From IMG/VR virus record IMGVR_UViG_2537562015_000013: DNA of 20,876 nucleotides; one strand, written 5' to 3'. Source of the stretch: a virus (Duplodnaviria; Heunggongvirae; Uroviricota; Caudoviricetes). The notes under the pieces were generated by a model. That model was not told where the DNA came from and made no database searches. It was given only the letters and a program-made list of their open reading frames with translations. A program made the translations under genes and the position numbers. Positions 386-19,619 of this stretch are shown here, in pieces; position 1 is the stretch's first letter, and every line of letters begins with the position of its first letter.

Positions 386-1609
386 ATGGCGTTGTCTGAT
401 GCGTGGTTGCGTTCAGTCGTTGGAAAGGAACGTGATAAGGTTTTGGTTAAATCCGATCGTGATGGTCTGTCTGTCAGAGTATCACCGAAAGGTCGCGTAG
501 TGTTCCAATATCGTTATCAATGGGCAGGGAAAGGTGAGCGTCTTGATATCGGAACTTACCCGGCAACTGGATTAAAAGAGGCCAGAGAAGAAGTTATCCG
601 TCTCCGTGGTGAACTTGAGTCAAACCGTAATCCACGATTGGTCAAGCAGGCTGAAAAACGAAAAGCTACTGAAGCCATGACGGTAGAGTCTGTGATCCGT
701 GCCTGGTATGAAGCATATTGTGTAAAAAATAAAAAAGGTTCTGAACAGATACTCCGCTCGTTTGAGCTGCACCTGTTCTCTAAAATCGGGAATATCCCTC
801 ACGATGCAGCTACATTGCATGATTGGTTAGAAGTCCTGGAGCCTCTTAGCACTAAGACTCCAGCAATAGCAGACCGATTGCTAATTAACGCAAAGCAGGC
901 CCATGTCTGGGCGTATAAGAGAAAGCTCATTGAAACTCGCCCGCTGTCGGATATCACGGGTAAAGATATGGATATCCGTAAAGGTCAGAAGAAACGGTTT
1001 CTGACACATGATGAAATTAAAATCCTTTATGCTGCGATCGATGGTTCTCGAATGGTTCCTAAATACCGGGCCTTCATTAAGCTATTGCTGCATTTTGGCT
1101 GCCGTAGTTCAGAGCTAATTACTGCCAGGGTGGGCGATTTTGATTTCATTAATAAGGTATGGACTGTACCACCAGAACGACATAAGACTGGAGAGATAAC
1201 AGGCGAACCGCTAAAGAGGCCCATTATTGAACCGGTGGAGGAGCTTATAAAGAACGCTATCTCTATGAACAATGGTTCCGATATGCTTTTTACTAAGGAA
1301 GGAAGCAGGGAACCCGTTGGTCGAACATCATTGCAGTCGCTGCCTTACAATTTAATGCAGTACGCATGGAGGCGTTTGGGGCATCAATTCCCTCATTGGT
1401 CTCTTCATGATTTGAGGCGAACAGCACGAACAAACTTTTCTGATCTTACTGCTCCTCATATTGCAGAAATAATGCTCGGCCATAAACTGCCAGGGGTTTG
1501 GCAGGTTTATGACCAGAGCGATTATCTAGAAGAACAGCGTAAAGCATATCAGGCATGGTGGGAGAGAGTTGAATCGATCGTTACTTGTACTGGCCCAGAA
1601 TCTACCTGA
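386..1609 (+). CDS. int: Tyrosine site-specific integrase (P4/CP4-57-like)
   Basis: 407-aa ORF with an N-terminal arm-binding-type domain and a C-terminal catalytic region containing HDLRRTARTNFSDL and a LGH...Y tail; SD-like AAGGTGAG upstream; located next to the att junction. Confidence 0.93.
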   Translation: MALSDAWLRSVVGKERDKVLVKSDRDGLSVRVSPKGRVVFQYRYQWAGKGERLDIGTYPATGLKEAREEVIRLRGELESNRNPRLVKQAEKRKATEAMTVESVIRAWYEAYCVKNKKGSEQILRSFELHLFSKIGNIPHDAATLHDWLEVLEPLSTKTPAIADRLLINAKQAHVWAYKRKLIETRPLSDITGKDMDIRKGQKKRFLTHDEIKILYAAIDGSRMVPKYRAFIKLLLHFGCRSSELITARVGDFDFINKVWTVPPERHKTGEITGEPLKRPIIEPVEELIKNAISMNNGSDMLFTKEGSREPVGRTSLQSLPYNLMQYAWRRLGHQFPHWSLHDLRRTARTNFSDLTAPHIAEIMLGHKLPGVWQVYDQSDYLEEQRKAYQAWWERVESIVTCTGPEST

Positions 1610-1805
1610 CAGCTTGCGTAGCCCTGACAGTCTGTTTTGAGCGAACAGTGGACATTTTCAATGGCATTCTTGAGTAGGTTACGCTTAGACCAGAAGTAAG
1701 AGGTGATAGAATTATCAACAATACATAAAACATAGGGGATCCTTATTGATTTATTGATCTTGACCAACTTATGTGATGCAGTATGTCTTTAACTTGTATT
1801 ACTAT

Positions 1806-1829
1806 TATCTTTATCTTTATCTTTATCTT
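1806..1829. repeat. Perfect tandem hexamer repeat (TATCTT)x4 in the upstream region of the cargo gene
   Basis: Four exact copies at 1806-1811, 1812-1817, 1818-1823 and 1824-1829, about 40-65 bp upstream of ATG 1872. Confidence 0.9.
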
Positions 1830-1871
1830 GTTGTTTCTAATAAACTTATCTTATTTCAGAAAGGAGTTTCT

Positions 1872-3572
1872 ATGCATTTAGTCACGAAATCTTATTTCGA
1901 TGCCTTTTGCAAAGCATTCGCTGCGCCCTATGAGGAGACCAAAAATTTTGAGGCGTTTGTGAACTATTGTGCTTTTTCAAAATACTCAGGCGACAAAGTT
2001 GAGGTCAGTGATCTTGTGTATGAAGGCCCGGACCCTGGTATTGATGGAGCATTTTTATTTTTAGACGACAGAGCCATTTTTTCAACTGAAGAACTTCAGG
2101 AGATTTTCCAAAACTCACGTCGCGAGTTTCAAGTTTCATTAGTATTCACGCAAGCTAAGTCATCGGAGAAGTGGAGCAAACAGGAAATAGACTCTTACAT
2201 TGCGTCAATAAGAGATTATCTTTCACCAGCGCCACAACAACCCCACAGTGAATATCTAGCGGACTTTAAAAAAATGTTCAACTTGATATTTGCTAATATC
2301 GGCAGAGTCAAAAATGGCCTTCCAGACTTATACGCATATTTTTTTAGTGCTGCACAAAATACAGAGGCCAGAGAAATAAAAGCTGCATTTGCATCGGGTG
2401 AAAAAAGCTTAAAGTCACTCGGGTTTTCACATGAAACATCCTTCATTATGGCTCACAAAGACATGATTCATGAGCTTTGGCTTGCTGCGGAAGGTCCAAT
2501 AGAAGCTAAACTTCCTACAATAGGCTATGCTCCATTCCCAGCGGCCCCTAATATTAATAATGCCTATGTAGCTACAGTCAAAGCTCGTAGTTTTATTGAT
2601 TCTATACTTAAAGACAAAAATGGAAACCCTCGAAAAAAATTATTCGAAGAAAATGTTAGAGATTTTCTGGGAATTGATGGTGACGTAAATTCAGAAATTG
2701 CAGGAACACTAGATACTGATGGAAAAAAAGCAAGATTTGGTTTAATGAATAATGGAGTGACAATAGTTGCATCAAGCGTGAGGCCTGCAGGGCAAGAAAT
2801 TTTTATACGAGATTTTCAAATTGTTAATGGATGTCAAACGTCTAATGTTCTTATATCAAAAGACATTCAAGTAGATGAATCAGTTAGTTTAATGATTAAA
2901 TTAATTGAAACCGATGAGCCAGCGATCCTTGATGACATTGTACGAGCTACGAATAGACAATCTAAAGTTGAAGATGCACAGTTCATTTCAACGCTAAAAA
3001 AATTAAGGGAATTAGAACATTATTTTAATGCTAAAGGTGCTATTGAAGGAAATAAAATTTATTTTGAGAGAAGAAAGGGGCAGTATAGTTCAGAAAGTAT
3101 AGCTCCAGTACGCATATTTGATATCAGAGAAGTTGCGCGAGCATATGCTGCTATTGTTATGATGAGACCAGATTATTCCAGTCGTTATCCAAATAGGTTA
3201 ACTGGTGACTTACTTAATGAGGTTTTCTCTTCCGATGCCCTCGAGGATGATTATTATATATCTTGCTATTGCTTGTATAGGCTAAAGGCTCTTATCTCAA
3301 ATAAGAGGTTTGATGGGAAGTATTCAAAATTACGCTGGCATATTCTAACTGCTGCGTCAAAATACTGTGGTAATAATTATAAGGCTTGGGGGTTCAAAAA
3401 TAAAAATGAAGCTCTTCATAACTTATTCTCAATGAATGATGGGGAGTGGTTTGAAAAACTTGAGAGTTTAGTAAAAATAGCTATACCAGATCCGGATATT
3501 TCTCGAGACTTACTAAAGTCGCAGCCTTTAACATCAACGATTCTCAAAAGTGTTGATAGCGTACCTAAATAA
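1872..3572 (+). CDS. AT-rich cargo ORF, about 566 aa; putative AIPR-like abortive-infection (phage resistance) protein
   Basis: Long ORF with SD AAGGAG 5 nt before ATG 1872 (the track ORF from 1773 includes translation of the hexamer repeat and is unlikely to be the real start). Composition is clearly more AT-rich than the flanking phage genes. Contains FGLMNNGVTIV...FQIVNGCQTS, which I recall as resembling the conserved core of the AIPR family; this is unverified. Confidence 0.8.
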   Translation: MHLVTKSYFDAFCKAFAAPYEETKNFEAFVNYCAFSKYSGDKVEVSDLVYEGPDPGIDGAFLFLDDRAIFSTEELQEIFQNSRREFQVSLVFTQAKSSEKWSKQEIDSYIASIRDYLSPAPQQPHSEYLADFKKMFNLIFANIGRVKNGLPDLYAYFFSAAQNTEAREIKAAFASGEKSLKSLGFSHETSFIMAHKDMIHELWLAAEGPIEAKLPTIGYAPFPAAPNINNAYVATVKARSFIDSILKDKNGNPRKKLFEENVRDFLGIDGDVNSEIAGTLDTDGKKARFGLMNNGVTIVASSVRPAGQEIFIRDFQIVNGCQTSNVLISKDIQVDESVSLMIKLIETDEPAILDDIVRATNRQSKVEDAQFISTLKKLRELEHYFNAKGAIEGNKIYFERRKGQYSSESIAPVRIFDIREVARAYAAIVMMRPDYSSRYPNRLTGDLLNEVFSSDALEDDYYISCYCLYRLKALISNKRFDGKYSKLRWHILTAASKYCGNNYKAWGFKNKNEALHNLFSMNDGEWFEKLESLVKIAIPDPDISRDLLKSQPLTSTILKSVDSVPK

Positions 3573-3579
3573 AGAGAAG

Positions 3580-3598
3580 GGAAGCTTATTGCTTCCCA
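3580..3598. terminator. Hairpin GGGAAGC-TTATT-GCTTCCC between the convergent cargo gene and the AlpA-like gene
   Basis: Perfect 7-bp stem with a 5-nt loop 8 bp after the cargo gene stop; a T-rich run follows on the minus strand (CTTCTCTTTATTT), so it may also terminate the leftward operon. Confidence 0.45.
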
Positions 3599-3810
3599 AT
3601 AAATTAACACACTTATAGAACCCTTGACTTAAACTTTTTACTGGTTCTCTCAGATATCGATAATTTTATAGGTTGTATCATAGCGTGATCGTCTTCAAGA
3701 GAAACAACTTAACATTAAATTAGCAACGTTTGCTCTTGGCACAGACTTGACTGTCAGATTAGTTTGGTCTGTGCCATAGATATGTCAGCTCCCATCTGAG
3801 ATAATACACG

Positions 3811-4005
3811 TTACTCAATAACTCCAGCAAATCTGTATATCTTGCGTGATGCCCATTTATTTGGGCAGGATTTAATATCAGGATCTGGAAAGTCAGGCCT
3901 GTATTTCTGGCCAGTTCTCCTGTTTACGCTGTTCCAGCGAAGAACAGTCGATACTGAAACGCCACAGAAGTCGGCGACTTGTTTAGTTGTCATTAAGTTG
4001 TTCAT
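3811..4005 (-). CDS. AlpA-family small DNA-binding protein (excisionase-like regulator)
   Basis: 64 aa; HTH-like TTKQVADFCGVSVSTVLRW followed by a W...FP.P...W pattern resembling AlpA/Xis-type proteins; strong SD AGGAGGTG; start overlaps the stop of the upstream gene. Confidence 0.6.
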   Translation of the reverse strand: MNNLMTTKQVADFCGVSVSTVLRWNSVNRRTGQKYRPDFPDPDIKSCPNKWASRKIYRFAGVIE

Positions 4006-4625: not shown

Positions 4626-4987
4626 TATGCTCCAGCCTCCGGTGCTTTTGGCATTACTGCCCAGTGAGTGATATTGACGTTTTCAAGGTCCCCGACCTGA
4701 AATGTCCACTGCCATTCTCCGGTTTCTTTTTGCCCCCATGTATACCAGAGAGAACGCCAGCCAATCAGCCAGCCTTCTCCATTAGCATCAAATAACAAAA
4801 CACTTTCATTTGCTGGTGGCAGTTCAGTTGACACTGGTATTACTTTGTTTTCCTGTGCTGCACATTTAGCTTCAAGCGCATCGAATTTACGCACTAGGTA
4901 TTCAGCATCCGTTTCATTCACTTTCAGATCTCGCGGTACACATCTCCCACGAAGAAACCCTTCCATTTCGAAAACATTCATGCGCAT
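4625..4987 (-). CDS. Second small DUF551-like phage protein
   Basis: 120 aa; C-terminus GEWQWTFQVGDLENVNITHWAVMPKAPE repeats the W...THW..P motif; SD GGAG; overlaps both flanking genes. Confidence 0.55.
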   Translation of the reverse strand: MRMNVFEMEGFLRGRCVPRDLKVNETDAEYLVRKFDALEAKCAAQENKVIPVSTELPPANESVLLFDANGEGWLIGWRSLWYTWGQKETGEWQWTFQVGDLENVNITHWAVMPKAPEAGA

Positions 4988-5514
4988 TTGCGTAACTCCG
5001 ATAATTCGTTAAAGCGTTCCATAAACATCCCGTAGGCATGGCCTGGAGCCAGTGGAATCACGTTGAACATCTCTGTTGCCGGGATACCTTCCAGCACAGG
5101 CCAGAAAGAGCCATCATCAAGCCCGAGATCGCGGCGTTCGGTTGCCAGCATAATGAGATCGGCATATTTCACTGGCGTGCTCATAACAGGAGGTAACCCG
5201 TATTTCTCACGGATTACGGCGTCTATTTTTTCTTCCATCCGTTTATAGTCAGGAAGAAGTCGTTTCAGTGGTGCGGGGATGTCCTGGCAATATGCTTCTG
5301 TTGCATCATGCATTAAAGCTTCAAAAGCAAATTCCTGCGGCACCAGCTGGCTGCAAAGCACCGCATGTTGGGCGACGCTGTAGAAGTGAGAAAGATGACC
5401 GGCAAAGCGGCAGATATTTGAAAGGGAAAACGCGATATCGTTAATAACGATGTCGTCTTTATTTATCTTGTCATAATAAAAATGCTTCCCGGAAAAAGTT
5501 TTAATAAATGACAT
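4978..5514 (-). CDS. HD-domain phosphohydrolase (YfdR-like putative 5'-deoxynucleotidase)
   Basis: H...HD signature (SVAQHAV ... LMHDATEAY). I place the start at the internal Met (MSFIKTF...) because GGAG sits about 8 nt upstream; the track ORF extends to 5577. Confidence 0.7.
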   Translation of the reverse strand: MSFIKTFSGKHFYYDKINKDDIVINDIAFSLSNICRFAGHLSHFYSVAQHAVLCSQLVPQEFAFEALMHDATEAYCQDIPAPLKRLLPDYKRMEEKIDAVIREKYGLPPVMSTPVKYADLIMLATERRDLGLDDGSFWPVLEGIPATEMFNVIPLAPGHAYGMFMERFNELSELRKCA

Positions 5515-5642
5515 TTTGTTCTCCACTTTATATGCGCTGCACCGCGCTGAATTTTGGTTAAAGAAAACCCTCGCCATCAGGCGATTATTGAGTTAATTAC
5601 GTTTCCATAAATGCCCCCGCAGGGGCATTTGCAGTAATGAAA

Positions 5643-6467
5643 TCAGGCGGTGAAAGTACCAATAAAGGTTTCTACTTTGCTGTCTTTGAATTTTTCAACA
5701 AGCAGATCACGAAATTCGTTAGCCATTTCTTCCTGCACTGCTTCCAGCTGAATAATGCGCAGAACCAGTACAGGGCGATCACCAGTGATAATGCTGAGGC
5801 GTAATTTAAACGGACGTTCTTTCAGGCCTTCAAACGGAACGCATTTAAACTCAAATGCTACTGGCATAATGTCTTTGGTTTTCGCTTCGACAGACTCCAT
5901 CAGAGAGCGTTTGCCGCTGAAGTCATTGTCTTCAAAATCAGCGGTCTGGTTTGCTTCAATCGTGATTTTACGGACCGCCGCAGCCGCTTTTGTTGCCTGA
6001 ATGGCGTCACCATTAGCATCAAAGCCCACAAGGTAGTCGGCCCAGTCTTCAATCCATTCTGCCAGTGACTTCTGGGAGTTACGCTCGCCGTTAACAGACA
6101 ACAGGGCAGAGAACGGTGCTGTCTTTTTCAGTTTGAGAGTGGCGGTGTTATCTGCGTGACCTGGTTCATCAATAGTACCCAGGTTAAGCACACTGACGGC
6201 TCGCATATTATCAGCATCGATAAAGCAGCGGGTGCCTTCATCTGCAAGATCTTTAGAATAACGGGTAAAGTCATCGATGCTGGCAGTGGAAAGCGCACCA
6301 CGGAAACGGAAGCGATTTAAATTAAATTTTTCCAGATCATGAATGCGGAAATTCTCAGGCAATGCCACAGCATCGGCACCAATCTTACTGATAATTTCAT
6401 TAACACCCTGAGCAGAAATAAGGGCATGGATTTGATTAATTGCGGTTGTGTCTAAGTTCTGAGACAT
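5643..6467 (-). CDS. YfdQ-family (DUF2303-like) prophage protein
   Basis: 274-aa ORF with an SD (GAGG) upstream; sequence resembles the YfdQ protein of CPS-53-type prophages as I remember it. Confidence 0.65.
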
Positions 6468-6532
6468 AATAAGTCCTCACTATATAAAGATATTCAGTGA
6501 TGAGATAAATAATCAGTTTATTAAAAACGATA

Positions 6533-6707
6533 TTAACGACCTGCTGCGCGGAGTTTTCCGTCAGGTTCACCGGCAAGAGTCAGTAATTGTCCCTGGTCTT
6601 CCTGCAGAATAGTCAGGCGACCACCGCGATTGACATACATCGGCGTTTCGGTGGTGTCTTCTTCGGAAATTTTCCCGCGGTTAGTCGGGCGAACATATGA
6701 GAGTTTG
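6533..6707 (-). pseudogene. 3' fragment of a leftward early gene truncated by IS1
   Basis: The reading frame runs straight into the IS1 left end at 6708 with no native start codon (the track ORF begins on a TTG inside IS1); it lies in the operon directly upstream of the YfdQ-like gene. Confidence 0.45.
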
Positions 6708-6762
6708 GGTGATGCTGCCAACTTACTGATTTAGTGTATGATGGTGTTTTTGAGGTGCTCCA

Positions 6763-7038
6763 GTGGCTTCTGTTTCTATCAGCTGTCCCTCCTGTTCAGC
6801 TACTGACGGGGTGGTGCGTAACGGCAAAAGCACCGCCGGACATCAGCGCTATCTCTGCTCTCACTGCCGTAAAACATGGCAACTGCAGTTCACTTACACC
6901 GCTTCTCAACCCGGTACGCACCAGAAAATCATTGATATGGCCATGAATGGCGTTGGATGCCGGGCAACTGCCCGCATTATGGGCGTTGGCCTCAACACGG
7001 TTTTACGTCACTTAAAAAACTCAGGCCGCAGTCGGTAA
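6763..7038 (+). CDS. insA: IS1 InsA protein
   Basis: 91-aa product [43 protein letters not shown]...; the A6C slippery motif (TTAAAAAAC, about 7012-7020) lies near its 3' end. Confidence 0.93.
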
Positions 7039-7460
7039 CCTCGCGCATACAACCGGGCAGTGATGTGATTGTCTGCGCGGAAATGGACGAACAGTGGGGC
7101 TACGTCGGTGCTAAATCACGTCAGCGCTGGCTGTTTTACGCGTATGACAGGATACGGAGGACAGTTGTGGCGCACGTTTTCGGTGAACGCACTCTGGCCA
7201 CACTGGCGCGTCTTCTGAGCCTGCTGTCGGCCTTTGAGGTCGTGGTATGGATGACGGATGGCTGGCCGCTGTATGAATCCCGCCTGAAGGGAAAGCTGCA
7301 CGTAATCAGCAAGCGTTACACTCAGCGCATTGAGCGACATAACCTGAATCTGAGACAACATCTGGCAAGGCTGGGACGGAAGTCACTGTCGTTCTCAAAA
7401 TCGGTGGAGCTGCATGACAAGGTCATCGGGCATTATCTGAACATAAAACACTATCAGTAA
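6957..7460 (+). CDS. insB: IS1 InsB reading frame (made as the InsAB' transposase by -1 frameshift)
   Basis: 167-aa frame [27 protein letters not shown]...HYLNIKHYQ overlapping the insA 3' end. Confidence 0.9.
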
Positions 7461-7801
7461 GTTGGAGTCACTACCCCGCCGCCGCAGTCCTTCATTTCTT
7501 ACCTGCTGACAAGTGGGTAACGCCACGCATGATGACGAGAACTACCGGAGTAAGCGAAGCCCGGTGCCAGTTAATACTGACTCAGTTAGTTCTGGCGGGT
7601 CTGGCGAAGGATAACGGCGGGTACGGGAATAAATTCAGACGCTGCCAGTAATGGCGGTTTCCTGCTGTGAAAATGGGCGGCTGGTGGGTGTTGGTAGCAC
7701 CTGCCAGCCATTCGCTCATGCTTACTGGTCACAAGCGAACCACGGCCCACTGCTTTAGCGCAAAAGCAGAGTGAGCCTACCAGAGTTACGCTTACTGATC
7801 C

Positions 7802-8854
7802 ATGAAAAATACTGTAAAAATAAACAGTGTTGATTTAATCAACGCTGATTGCCTGCATTTTATTCAGTCCCTGCCTGATGATTCCATTGACCTGATTGTT
7901 ACCGATCCGCCGTACTTCAAGGTGAAACCCAACGGCTGGGACAATCAGTGGAAAGGGGACGAAGATTACCTTAAGTGGCTGGACCACTGTCTGGCCCAGT
8001 TCTGGCGGGTGTTAAAACCTGCCGGAAGCCTTTACCTGTTCTGTGGGCATCGCCTGGCATCTGATATTGAGATCATGATGCGTGAACGTTTCAACGTGCT
8101 TAACCATATCATCTGGGCGAAGCCGTCCGGACGTTGGAATGGGTGTAATAAAGAAAGTCTGCGCGCATATTTTCCTGCCACAGAGCGCGTTCTGTTTGCT
8201 GAACATTACCAGGGGCCATATCGCGGCAAAAGTGACGGCTATGCGGCAAAAGAAAGGGAACTCAAACAGCACATAATGGCACCGCTGATATCGTATTTCA
8301 GGGATGCTCGTGCCGAACTGGGTATAACGGCAAAACAAATTGCCGAAGCCACAGGTAAGAAAAATATGGTTTCCCACTGGTTTGGTGCCAGTCAGTGGCA
8401 GTTGCCGAATGAGGCTGACTATCGGAAGTTACAGGCACTGTTTTCCCGTATAGCGGCAGAGAAGTTTCAGGAACAACAACTGGAACAACCACACCACCAG
8501 CTGGTGGCATCTTATGATTCACTGAATCGCAAATATTCTGAATTGCTGGATGAGTTTAAATCTCTCCGGCGTTATTTCTCCGTATCAGTCTCCGTGCCTT
8601 ATACCGATGTCTGGATGCATAAACCCGTTCAGTTCTACCCGGGTAAACATCCGTGTGAGAAACCGGCGGATATGCTCAGGCAAATAATCAATGCCAGTAG
8701 TCGACCTGGTGATCTGGTTGCTGATTTTTTTATGGGATCCGGTTCCACAATAAAAGCAGCAATGGCGCTGGGGCGTCGGGCCTTAGGTGTTGAGCTTGAG
8801 TCAGAGCGGTTTAACCAGACAGTGAAAGAGATAAACGAGCTGGTGGGGAAATAA
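7802..8854 (+). CDS. DNA methyltransferase, beta-class N6-adenine or N4-cytosine type (orphan)
   Basis: 350 aa; catalytic motif IV DPPY (LIVTDPPYF) near the N-terminus and AdoMet motif I FFMGSGST near the C-terminus; no restriction partner visible; no clear SD before the ATG. Confidence 0.85.
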   Translation: MKNTVKINSVDLINADCLHFIQSLPDDSIDLIVTDPPYFKVKPNGWDNQWKGDEDYLKWLDHCLAQFWRVLKPAGSLYLFCGHRLASDIEIMMRERFNVLNHIIWAKPSGRWNGCNKESLRAYFPATERVLFAEHYQGPYRGKSDGYAAKERELKQHIMAPLISYFRDARAELGITAKQIAEATGKKNMVSHWFGASQWQLPNEADYRKLQALFSRIAAEKFQEQQLEQPHHQLVASYDSLNRKYSELLDEFKSLRRYFSVSVSVPYTDVWMHKPVQFYPGKHPCEKPADMLRQIINASSRPGDLVADFFMGSGSTIKAAMALGRRALGVELESERFNQTVKEINELVGK

Positions 8855-17260: not shown

Positions 17261-17273
17261 TTGTGGAGTGAAT

Positions 17274-19619
17274 ATGGCAGTACAGATTTCAGGTGTGCTG
17301 AAAGATGGTGCGGGAAAACCAATACAGAACTGCACTATTCAACTGAAGGCAAAGCGTAACAGCACCACGGTACTGGTGAACACGGTGGCCTCTGAAAATC
17401 CGGATGAAGCCGGGCGTTACAGCATGGATGTTGAGCATGGCCAGTACAGCGTCACCCTGCTGGTTGAAGGTTTTCCGCCTTCACATGCCGGAACCATTAC
17501 CGTCTATGAAGGTTCCAGACCAGGTACGCTGAATGATTTTCTCGGTGCCATGACGGAAGATGATGTCATGCCGGAGGCATTGCGTCGTTTTGAGGCAATG
17601 GTGGAAGAAGCGGCACGCAACGCCGAAGCCGCCTCTCAGAGCGCAGCGGCGGCAAAGAAATCCGAAACTGCAGCGGCATCATCGAAGAACGCGGCGAAAA
17701 CCTCAGAAACGAATGCAGCTAACAGCGCACAGGCGGCAGCGTCCTCGCAGACTGCATCGGCAAACTCCGCGACAGCAGCCAAAAAATCAGAAACCAACGC
17801 GAAAAACAGCGAGACAGCCGCAAAGACGAGCGAAACCAACGCAAAGTCCAGCCAGACGGCAGCGAAAACCAGCGAAACGAATGCCAAAGCCAGTGAAACT
17901 GCGGCGAAAAATAGCCAGAATGCAGCAGCCGAAAGCGAGAGCGCGGCAGCCGGTTCTGCGACTGCAGCAGCTGGATCAGCAACTGCTGCGGCTAACAGCC
18001 AGAAAGCAGCGAAGACGAGCGAAACTAACGCAAAGTCCAGCCAGACGGCAGCGAAGACCAGCGAAACAAATGCCAAAGCCAGCGAAACTGCGGCGAAAAG
18101 CAGTCAGGATGCAGCAGCCGAAAGCGAGAGCGCGGCAGCTGGTTCTGCAAGTGCGGCGGCTGCTTCTGCCACTGCATCAGCAAACAGTCAAAAAGCGGCA
18201 AAAACCAGTGAAACCAATGCAAAGACAAGCGAGACTGCAGCGGCGAACTCGGCGCAAGCATCGGCAGCAAGCCAGACAGCAGCTAAAGCAAGTGAGGATG
18301 CAGCCAGAGAGTATGCAAGCCAGGCAGCAGAGCCGTATAAATATGTCTTACAGCCACTGCCTGATGTGTGGATACCGTTTAACGATTCACTGGATATGCT
18401 TGCTGGCTTTTCGCCTGGTTATAAGCAAATAACCGTAGGTGATGATGTTATTAAAATGCCATCCGATAAGGTTGTTAGCTTCAAACGCGCATCAGGTGCA
18501 ACATACATTAATAAATCAGGTGTATTAACCGTTGCTGAAGTTGACGAACCGCGATTTGAACGAGAAGGTTTGCTGATTGAAGGACAGAGAACAAACTATT
18601 TCAGAAATTCAAATACACCAGAAGCATGGAATAACACGGGTAGTGTGTCTGTTGAGTCGTTCGACAGTGATAAGGGGTTTAACTATGGAAGGATAACTGT
18701 TATTAATGAAAATCCGACAGCACAAGGATATCAGGCAATTGCTGTAAACACGAATGATGCTTACACCTGCCCGGCAGGTTCTTATACGACGATATCGTGT
18801 CTGACGAAAAGTGATAATTCCCGGTGTCGTGCAAGGTTCGGAAAAATGTCTGATAATGGTGCGTTTGTTTTTCATTCAGATGCAGTTCTGGATCCTGTTA
18901 CGGGAAATGTTGTTCATGGAAATAATGTGACGGTGACGGCAGAAAGAGTCGGTGAATGGTGGTTGTTTACCGCCACTCTTTTTGCAGATGCGGAAATGAT
19001 AATCAGCTCAAGATTTGAAATCCTGGCGATGCCTGGAATCAGTATTATCCCCAATGGCTCTACGTTAGATATTGCGATGCCTCAGGCGGAGATTGGGTCG
19101 TACAGGACGTCATTTATCATTACTGAAGGGGCTCCTGGCACTCGCTCCAGCGACATGGTGACAATACCTGTAAGAAACAATATTCACCGATTACCATTCA
19201 GTGCTCTTGTTGAAGTTAATAAAAACTGGGATATCCCTCCCAGCAAATCACCATTAATCTTTAATGTTAAAGATTATCAGGAAAATGGTCTGTTCACGCA
19301 TGGATTCCGTGGTAATAATTTCTCTGATGCCGGTTCTCCTTTTATTTCTATGGGAGGGTGTAATAAATATGTGGCAACAACCCAGAGGAAAATCATTTCA
19401 GGCTTCCGTTGTGGCGCTGATGGAGATGTTCAGGCCGTATGTAATGGTGAATTATCTGTTGCGGCAAAAACAACATGGACTTCAATTGTTCCACGGGCAG
19501 TATTGCGAATTGGAGGGCAGGGCACTAATGGGGAGTATCATCTTTTTGGTCATATCCGTAATCTGCGTATCTGGCATAAAGAATTAACTGATGCGCAAAT
19601 GGGGGAGAGTATTAAATGA
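17274..19619 (+). CDS. stf: Side tail fiber protein (Stf-like) with a repetitive Ala/Ser/Thr-rich shaft and a LamG-like C-terminal domain
   Basis: N-terminus MAVQISGVLKDGAGKPIQNCTIQLKAKRNSTT... closely matches lambda Stf as I recall it; the central region is built from AAKTSETNAK-type repeats; the C-terminus ends GEYHLFGHIRNLRIWHKELTDAQM, a pattern typical of LamG/ConA-like jelly-roll domains. Start placed at ATG 17274 (GGAG upstream). Confidence 0.88.
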   Translation: MAVQISGVLKDGAGKPIQNCTIQLKAKRNSTTVLVNTVASENPDEAGRYSMDVEHGQYSVTLLVEGFPPSHAGTITVYEGSRPGTLNDFLGAMTEDDVMPEALRRFEAMVEEAARNAEAASQSAAAAKKSETAAASSKNAAKTSETNAANSAQAAASSQTASANSATAAKKSETNAKNSETAAKTSETNAKSSQTAAKTSETNAKASETAAKNSQNAAAESESAAAGSATAAAGSATAAANSQKAAKTSETNAKSSQTAAKTSETNAKASETAAKSSQDAAAESESAAAGSASAAAASATASANSQKAAKTSETNAKTSETAAANSAQASAASQTAAKASEDAAREYASQAAEPYKYVLQPLPDVWIPFNDSLDMLAGFSPGYKQITVGDDVIKMPSDKVVSFKRASGATYINKSGVLTVAEVDEPRFEREGLLIEGQRTNYFRNSNTPEAWNNTGSVSVESFDSDKGFNYGRITVINENPTAQGYQAIAVNTNDAYTCPAGSYTTISCLTKSDNSRCRARFGKMSDNGAFVFHSDAVLDPVTGNVVHGNNVTVTAERVGEWWLFTATLFADAEMIISSRFEILAMPGISIIPNGSTLDIAMPQAEIGSYRTSFIITEGAPGTRSSDMVTIPVRNNIHRLPFSALVEVNKNWDIPPSKSPLIFNVKDYQENGLFTHGFRGNNFSDAGSPFISMGGCNKYVATTQRKIISGFRCGADGDVQAVCNGELSVAAKTTWTSIVPRAVLRIGGQGTNGEYHLFGHIRNLRIWHKELTDAQMGESIK
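17823..18200 (+). repeat. Two tandem copies of a 189-bp (63-aa) unit inside stf, within a larger degenerate repeat tract (about 17630-18300)
   Basis: 17823-18011 and 18012-18200 align with only scattered substitutions (KTSETNAKSSQTAAKTSETNAKASETAAK.SQ.AAAESESAAAGSA...). The overlapping track ORFs in other frames and strands here are repeat artefacts. Confidence 0.85.

Follow-up and report, generated by a model that had tools for sequence, protein, structure and literature searches.

AbiU (AbiU1/AbiUi) of the Lactococcus lactis plasmid pND001 is the described defense system that most resembles the gene analyzed here, and it is represented in the PADLOC model PDLC02357 and in DefenseFinder under the name AbiU. 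According to a 2026 review, which cites Dai et al. 2001 on this point, lactococcal AbiU delays phage transcription and cuts plating efficiency 10- to 100-fold (PMC13064643), and AbiUi alone gives resistance in Lactococcus (PMC13064643). A Vibrio AbiU has been validated and a phage anti-AbiU protein, named Surt, has been found (bioRxiv 10.1101/2024.06.14.598830), and a 2026 preprint lists AbiU among the systems present in both the P2 and the P4 hotspots. Here, we analyzed a 20,876-nt stretch of tailed-phage DNA (IMG/VR record IMGVR_UViG_2537562015_000013; hereafter, the window), in which a single AT-rich gene on the plus strand (1872-3572), encoding 566 amino acids, lies between the integrase (int) and excisionase (xis) genes of an Escherichia coli prophage. 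Judged by its profile matches, this gene is a member of the known AbiU/AIPR family. Its sequence and predicted structure make it likely that it encodes a stand-alone anti-phage protein, carried as exchangeable int-xis cargo of a lambdoid prophage, in which the AIPR core and the C-terminal region gate a predicted N-terminal nuclease.

The family assignment rests on several independent models. The Pfam AIPR profile (PF10592) matched residues 258-518 over profile positions 1-292 of 308 (E=5e-43, 148.4 bits against a cut-off of 25), PHROG 1841 matched the protein with E=1.9e-70, and the identical RefSeq protein WP_001419254.1 (in NZ_CM180506.1) is named "AIPR family protein." The PADLOC AbiU model aligned from end to end, with residues 2-562 covering profile positions 3-535 of 537 (E=2.6e-111), which places the protein more precisely than "AIPR-like." An earlier reading of the window, made from the sequence only and without database searches, had guessed at the AIPR family from the motif block FGLMNNGVTIV...FQIVNGCQTS. 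These profile searches bore out the guess, and the block, at residues 289-324, is the most conserved part of the family. To this extent the finding is largely ordinary, in that the Prokaryotic Genome Annotation Pipeline (PGAP), PADLOC, and DefenseFinder would all flag the gene, and AbiU has already been reported in enterobacterial temperate phages.

We aligned the window protein with five homologs that are 22-45% identical to it: those of an L. cremoris plasmid, an S. aureus plasmid, mycobacteriophage Miryou (gp38), Fels-2 (STM2723.1), and a metagenomic sequence (P0118). Invariant across all six were G56, D58, Q94, K96, N261, R263, N293-N294-G295-T297, V318-N319-G320-Q322-T323-S324, and T360-N361-Q363. 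The L. cremoris plasmid protein had the best AbiU score of the set (1.2e-177), and the window protein scored in the range of the Fels-2, Miryou gp38, and S. aureus plasmid homologs.

The window protein resembles lactococcal AbiU in several respects: it matches the AbiU profile over its full length (566 versus 589 amino acids), shares invariant motifs with it in the AIPR core as well as in the nuclease-like N-terminus, is likewise the product of an AT-rich single-gene system on a mobile element, and gives the same FokI-like match in its predicted structure. It differs in having only ~22% identity to the lactococcal protein and in occupying the int-xis slot of a prophage rather than a plasmid. 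On the L. cremoris plasmid pC42 (L024, 2818-5870), a 589-amino-acid AbiU-type gene is followed by a 341-amino-acid open reading frame (ORF) with no PADLOC match, a two-gene layout that presumably resembles the original abiU1/abiU2 pair. The cassette in the window has no such second gene and no AbiU2-like (HEPN) neighbor.

Three other labels were considered for the protein and set aside. We regard the "Abi alpha-like" label of the PHROG as a naming artifact, since in the Pfam scans AIPR was the one abortive-infection family matched. MzaE of the MZA system has the AIPR core in common with the window protein (E about 1e-9), and membership was rejected because the match to NF041935 reached 37.7 bits against an equivalog cut-off of 1050 and the neighboring genes are int and xis, with no MzaA-D. 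An older statement, in PMC3506569, has AIPR proteins carry an N-terminal HEPN domain. Neither a HEPN match nor an R-x(4-6)-H motif was found in the window protein, and such a domain was rejected for the AbiU subfamily to which it belongs.

The status of the gene as cargo follows from comparison by blastn with six prophages that have the same integrase, the same chromosomal site, and other cargo. Homology to these prophages is lost at 1612-1623, a few bases past the int stop codon, and picks up again at 3725-3762, shortly ahead of the xis stop codon; the flanks of the slot are 86-98% identical. The variable cassette so delimited (~1624-3724, ~2.1 kb) consists of an upstream region, the AbiU gene, a hairpin, and a 3' spacer of ~130 bp, and it holds no other plus-strand ORF of at least 40 amino acids. 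Of 5,426 complete E. coli genomes, 700 have the integrase and 59 the cassette; since only 59 of the ~700 integrase-bearing genomes carry the gene, it is not a conserved core gene. The ORF is intact, with 97.7-100% identity, in nearly all of 60 cassette copies. A megablast search of the cassette against 50,697 phage records gave no match.

Base composition sets the cassette apart as well. Its GC content is 36.0%, with 36.9% in the ORF (27.9% at third codon positions) and 32% in the upstream region, against 45.5% in int and 49.6% in the rest of the window. The sequence-only reading had described a single long ORF filling the gap between int and the excisionase gene, clearly richer in AT than the rest of the prophage and so probably a separately acquired moron. 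All of this held: the interval it chose coincides almost exactly with the cassette, the breakpoints are sharp, the slot content is exchangeable, and the gene is neither core to this prophage family nor typical of it in composition.

What else occupies the slot is informative. Strain S3 has Dsr1 there (PADLOC E=0), an O111:H8 strain has a dGTPase (8e-105), and the int-xis slot behaves as a defense hotspot of the kind known for P2 and P4 (PMC9122126). Four further cassettes occupy the same slot as window positions 1624-3724 and encode hypothetical proteins of 150-342 amino acids that had no Pfam or PADLOC match (L002, 7378-8193; L003, 7325-8301; L004, 7591-8586, minus strand; L006, 7500-8528). 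Because their slot-mates are AbiU, Dsr1, and a dGTPase, these unannotated cassettes are candidates for unrecognized defense genes.

Two copies of the cassette labeled as plasmid-borne were rejected as independent contexts: one record proved to be a piece of chromosome and the other a frameshift-ridden 33.7-kb circle of the same prophage. The circle (NZ_CP019281.1, L012) was deposited as a plasmid, and its strain also has a chromosomal copy of the prophage; it may represent either excised phage DNA or an artifact of assembly. Just upstream of its int, beside DinI, this record carries reverse-transcriptase and TIR-domain genes (1952-3581, 4687-7866), which may mark a second defense cargo site.

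The protein appears to be built of three modules: an N-terminal PD-(D/E)xK nuclease with D58, Q94, and K96 as candidate catalytic residues, a central ParB/sulfiredoxin-like AIPR core, and a helical C-terminal region. The N-terminal module (residues 1-250; 1872-2621, plus strand) is predicted by structural modeling to adopt a restriction-endonuclease-like alpha/beta fold of the FokI/MspJI type. Here, the sequence-only reading, in which the first ~250 residues matched nothing, gives way to a modeled resemblance to the PD-(D/E)xK nucleases. The best structural match is FokI, and those that follow include the modification-dependent enzymes MspJI and AspBHI. In the model, D58 (codon 2043-2045) stands at the start of a strand and Q94-A-K96 (Q94, 2151-2153; K96, 2157-2159; all three codons on the plus strand) lies on a later one; the three candidate residues are invariant in the family down to 22% identity. 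This pattern resembles the D...QxK motif of Mrr- and MspJI-type enzymes. The 2026 review gives the same FokI similarity for lactococcal AbiU (PMC13064643).

The AIPR domain (residues 258-518; 2643-3425, plus strand) carries the motifs NVRD, RFG..NNGxT, VNGCQTS, and TNRQ in its N-terminal half. This half (~255-365) is predicted to be ParB/sulfiredoxin-like, with the remainder helical, and BrxU and SspE are among the ParB-like structural matches of the core. The block IVNGCQTS has T/S where the arginine of GxxR or DGQ(Q/H)R would sit, an equivalence that is a motif reading and not a structural alignment. With the ParB-type nucleotide-binding arginine absent, gating by a nucleotide is speculative.

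Based on the family membership, the cargo status, the lack of a partner gene, the fold predictions, and the conserved motifs, we propose the following mode of action. Expression from the prophage would be low, driven by a weak AT-rich promoter belonging to the gene or by transcription that runs on from int. On infection, the AIPR core and the C-terminal region would sense a phage cue, which may be a nucleic acid or a protein, and sensing would license cleavage of nucleic acid by the N-terminal nuclease. Phage gene expression would then be blocked or delayed and the phage yield lowered, so that the lysogen or its clone is protected. We infer the nuclease activity, its gating by the AIPR domain, the trigger, the target, and the fate of the cell from family resemblance and predicted structure. 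Nucleic acid cleavage of this kind would explain why, as described for lactococcal AbiU, phage transcription is delayed and plating falls 10- to 100-fold.

Several observations weigh against this proposal. Phage resistance has been reported only for the Lactococcus and Vibrio members of the family, none of which are close relatives of the window protein. A single-gene AIPR that Rousset et al. cloned from a P4 hotspot of E. coli was not one of their seven validated systems. That protein is 32% identical to the window protein over 133 amino acids, in the AIPR core only, and because nothing beyond this core is shared, the negative result transfers poorly. As for the nuclease, hhalign of the N-terminal profile against the catalytic domain of E. 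coli Mrr gave a probability of 3% and aligned only an 11-column DGGIDG stretch; 13 N-terminal fragments searched against Pfam at E<=10 returned nothing relevant; and Foldseek returned no significant match. In this comparison, the resemblance between DPGIDG/TQAK and DGGIDG/VQAK catches the eye and is not significant by profile. Sequence searches of the PDB with the protein and with a 42-sequence profile also returned nothing. Since the Mrr profile and Pfam gave no sequence-level support, the nuclease assignment is a structural one.

The structural matches also bring up the main rival to this proposal, namely direct restriction of a Type IV-like kind. Here, the ParB/sulfiredoxin-like core would recognize modified or foreign DNA, the N-terminal nuclease would cut it, and the cell would survive, making the protein a PD-(D/E)xK counterpart of GmrSD, BrxU, and SspE. 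It is the resemblance to MspJI, AspBHI, BrxU, and SspE that gives this explanation its standing. AbiU1/AIPR genes are also often linked to restriction-modification (R-M) systems (Makarova et al.), and the Aeromonas homolog adjoins an R-M pair, along with an integrase fragment and a relaxase. We nonetheless judge it unlikely. As to the three systems themselves, GmrSD, BrxU, and SspE combine a DUF262 ParB-like nucleoside triphosphatase with a DUF1524 HNH nuclease, so that their nuclease is of the HNH type and C-terminal, whereas the one predicted for the window protein is of the PD-(D/E)xK type and N-terminal. In addition, their DGQQR-type nucleotide-binding motif is replaced by VNGCQTS in the window protein, and there is no sequence-level relationship. 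By this comparison, the likeness may point to a working mode and not to membership.

A related idea, which we offer tentatively, is that AbiU works as a clamp-type nuclease rather than by classical suicide. The degenerate ParB/sulfiredoxin core would load on or recognize the invading nucleic acid and license FokI/MspJI-like cleavage, as a PD-(D/E)xK analog of GmrSD, BrxU, and SspE. If true, this would explain the "delayed phage transcription" of AbiU reported in 2001.

The distribution of homologs bears on a further alternative. Homologs of full length (566 amino acids) and 70-76% identity are spread over the alpha-, beta-, and gammaproteobacteria. The homolog is a lone insertion among housekeeping genes in Pseudomonas, Burkholderia, and Amaricoccus, and across four distant genomic contexts no conserved neighbor was found. 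The genes are markedly poorer in GC than their surroundings in Pseudomonas (40% in the gene, 61% in the flanks), Burkholderia (45 and 69%), Amaricoccus (47 and 70%), and Fels-2 (37 and 53%). The AT-richness of the AbiU family persists in hosts whose own GC content is 61-70%, and in these hosts no mobility gene was found within 7 kb of the homolog (L015, 7001-8701; L017, 7001-8701; L021, 7001-8713).

Lone AT-rich insertions in several genera, together with a gene that has stayed intact although the prophage around it is degraded (it has an IS1 insertion and a truncated yfdP and lacks an immunity region), would fit a selfish or stabilizing element. In such an element, a toxic nuclease would be restrained in the lysogen and would favor retention of the prophage remnant, with no real anti-phage role. 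We consider this very unlikely, as the cassette has no antitoxin-like partner and none is conserved beside the homologs, the Lactococcus and Vibrio members of the family have anti-phage phenotypes by experiment, and Dsr1 and the dGTPase, which occupy the slot in other strains, are bona fide defense genes.

Relatives of the window gene are also found as phage cargo elsewhere. Fels-2 STM2723.1 is a full-length homolog (30% identity, E=2e-82) located between gpA/DinI and the portal gene Q, and gpA-gpQ is a hotspot of P2-like phages (PMC9122126). In mycobacteriophage Miryou, gp38 lies two genes from the integrase gene. The window gene is like STM2723.1 and the P4-hotspot AIPR pFR77 (Rousset et al. 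2022) in being an enterobacterial temperate-phage moron in a recognized variable hotspot. It is unlike the Fels-2 and P4 cargo in belonging to a lambdoid family at the prfC/yjjG site and in using the int-xis slot.

Regarding expression, the start codon can be placed with some precision. The ORF delimited mechanically (1773-3572) begins at GTG 1773, and the real start is ATG 1872: Met1 and His2 are invariant in 42 homologs, and 1871/1872 is precisely where DNA homology to the copies in Pseudomonas, Burkholderia, and Aeromonas sets in. A Shine-Dalgarno-like AAAGGAG (1860-1866, plus strand), read from the sequence, lies 5 nt before this ATG and is kept in all six aligned alleles. A promoter scan of the plus strand over 1600-1872 detected no sigma-70-like promoter, and the best -10-like hexamer by eye, TCTAAT (1836-1841), is without a good -35. 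The gene and int point the same way with no terminator in between, so read-through is possible.

That the gene might be an inactive or silenced passenger, lacking a functional promoter, subject to xenogeneic silencing of its AT-rich DNA, and of no current function, is suggested by the empty promoter scan, by a GC content of 32% upstream and 37% within the gene, and by the failure of a distant E. coli AIPR gene to protect from its native promoter, yet it is most improbable given an ORF that is intact and nearly unchanged across the sampled copies, a strong ribosome-binding site, the possible read-through from int on the same strand, and the retention of every family-invariant residue.

Two features of the cassette that the sequence-only reading had picked out, a hexamer repeat upstream of the gene and a hairpin right after its stop codon, are both present. 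The repeat is a perfect (TATCTT)x4 array on the plus strand at 1805-1829, 43-67 nt upstream of the start codon, to which Tandem Repeats Finder assigned period 6, 4.2 copies, and 100% matches. There are five copies in strain E1648, three in AR434, and two in 26561, 2017-02-2CC, and OHT76-1, with flanks that are otherwise near-identical, and match lengths of 1989, 1995, 2001, and 2007 suggest that the three-copy allele is the most frequent. Copy number varies with sequence lineage, the two-copy alleles being the most divergent (~97.7-99.2%), a pattern that suggests slippage from time to time and not rapid phase variation. The unit is similar to a -10 hexamer (TATcTT), and slippage between two and five copies could tune expression between lineages.

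The hairpin, GGGAAGC-TTATT-GCTTCCC, has a 7-bp stem and a 5-nt loop, begins 7 nt past the stop codon (3579-3597), and is more stable than shuffled sequences (deltaG -13.3 kcal/mol, z=-3.7). Its T-run sits on the minus-strand side, and a terminator-like score was obtained on the minus strand only. Because the T-run is on the opposite strand, the hairpin is an unconvincing terminator for the cargo gene; it may instead end leftward transcripts of the xis/early-left operon, or insulate against them. Neither the TATCTT region nor the hairpin is present in the Pseudomonas, Burkholderia, Aeromonas, Amaricoccus, and Fels-2 loci compared, so both are features of the E. coli cassette only.

The window is 100% identical to part of NZ_CM180506.1 (E. 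coli strain E1739), where the prophage is integrated immediately downstream of yjjG with a prfC fragment adjoining. The prfC/yjjG site is a documented integration site of lambdoid and Shiga toxin (Stx) prophages (PMC8065619), and yjjG and the prfC fragment adjoin the integrase gene in every locus examined. The left conserved flank of the slot is the tyrosine integrase gene (386-1609, plus strand; Pfam Phage_integrase, Arm-DNA-bind_3, and Phage_int_M; PHROG 1). The right flank begins with a 64-amino-acid excisionase gene (3811-4005, minus strand), which matches PHROG 1553 over its full length (E=7.7e-36) and was left unannotated by PGAP in the identical RefSeq record. The earlier description of this gene as an excisionase-like regulator therefore stands, and the term "AlpA-like" was loose: the 64-amino-acid protein had no AlpA match in Pfam, where it gave only weak HTH_17 and MerR matches.

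Other features of the prophage were noted in passing. In the degraded part of the prophage, at ~6533-7460 (L001, 12533-13460), yfdP is truncated and the IS1 element stands where intact relatives such as L002 have the repressor/replication region. Directly after the element and before the holin/lysis genes is a DNA methyltransferase gene (7802-8854, plus strand), which may be a further accessory gene. A tail-fiber-like ORF (17268-19619) contains nested tandem repeats of 21, 42, and 189 nt (17771-18323) that encode ...AAK-x-SETNAK... peptides and give an A-over-T skew of up to 0.63; this looks like an ordinary tail-fiber repeat region.

Taken together, a reading made without tools recognized a defense gene and its cargo status correctly; what it observed is confirmed, and its interpretation is supported. 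The E. coli copy offers a convenient model in a tractable host for the mechanism of AbiU, with D58, Q94, and K96 in the predicted nuclease and N319 and Q322 in the AIPR core as the residues of interest. About 13% of complete E. coli genomes have the int-xis slot of a prophage at the prfC/yjjG site, and among the seven slot cassettes sampled, four are without a recognizable domain, which makes them candidate new systems.

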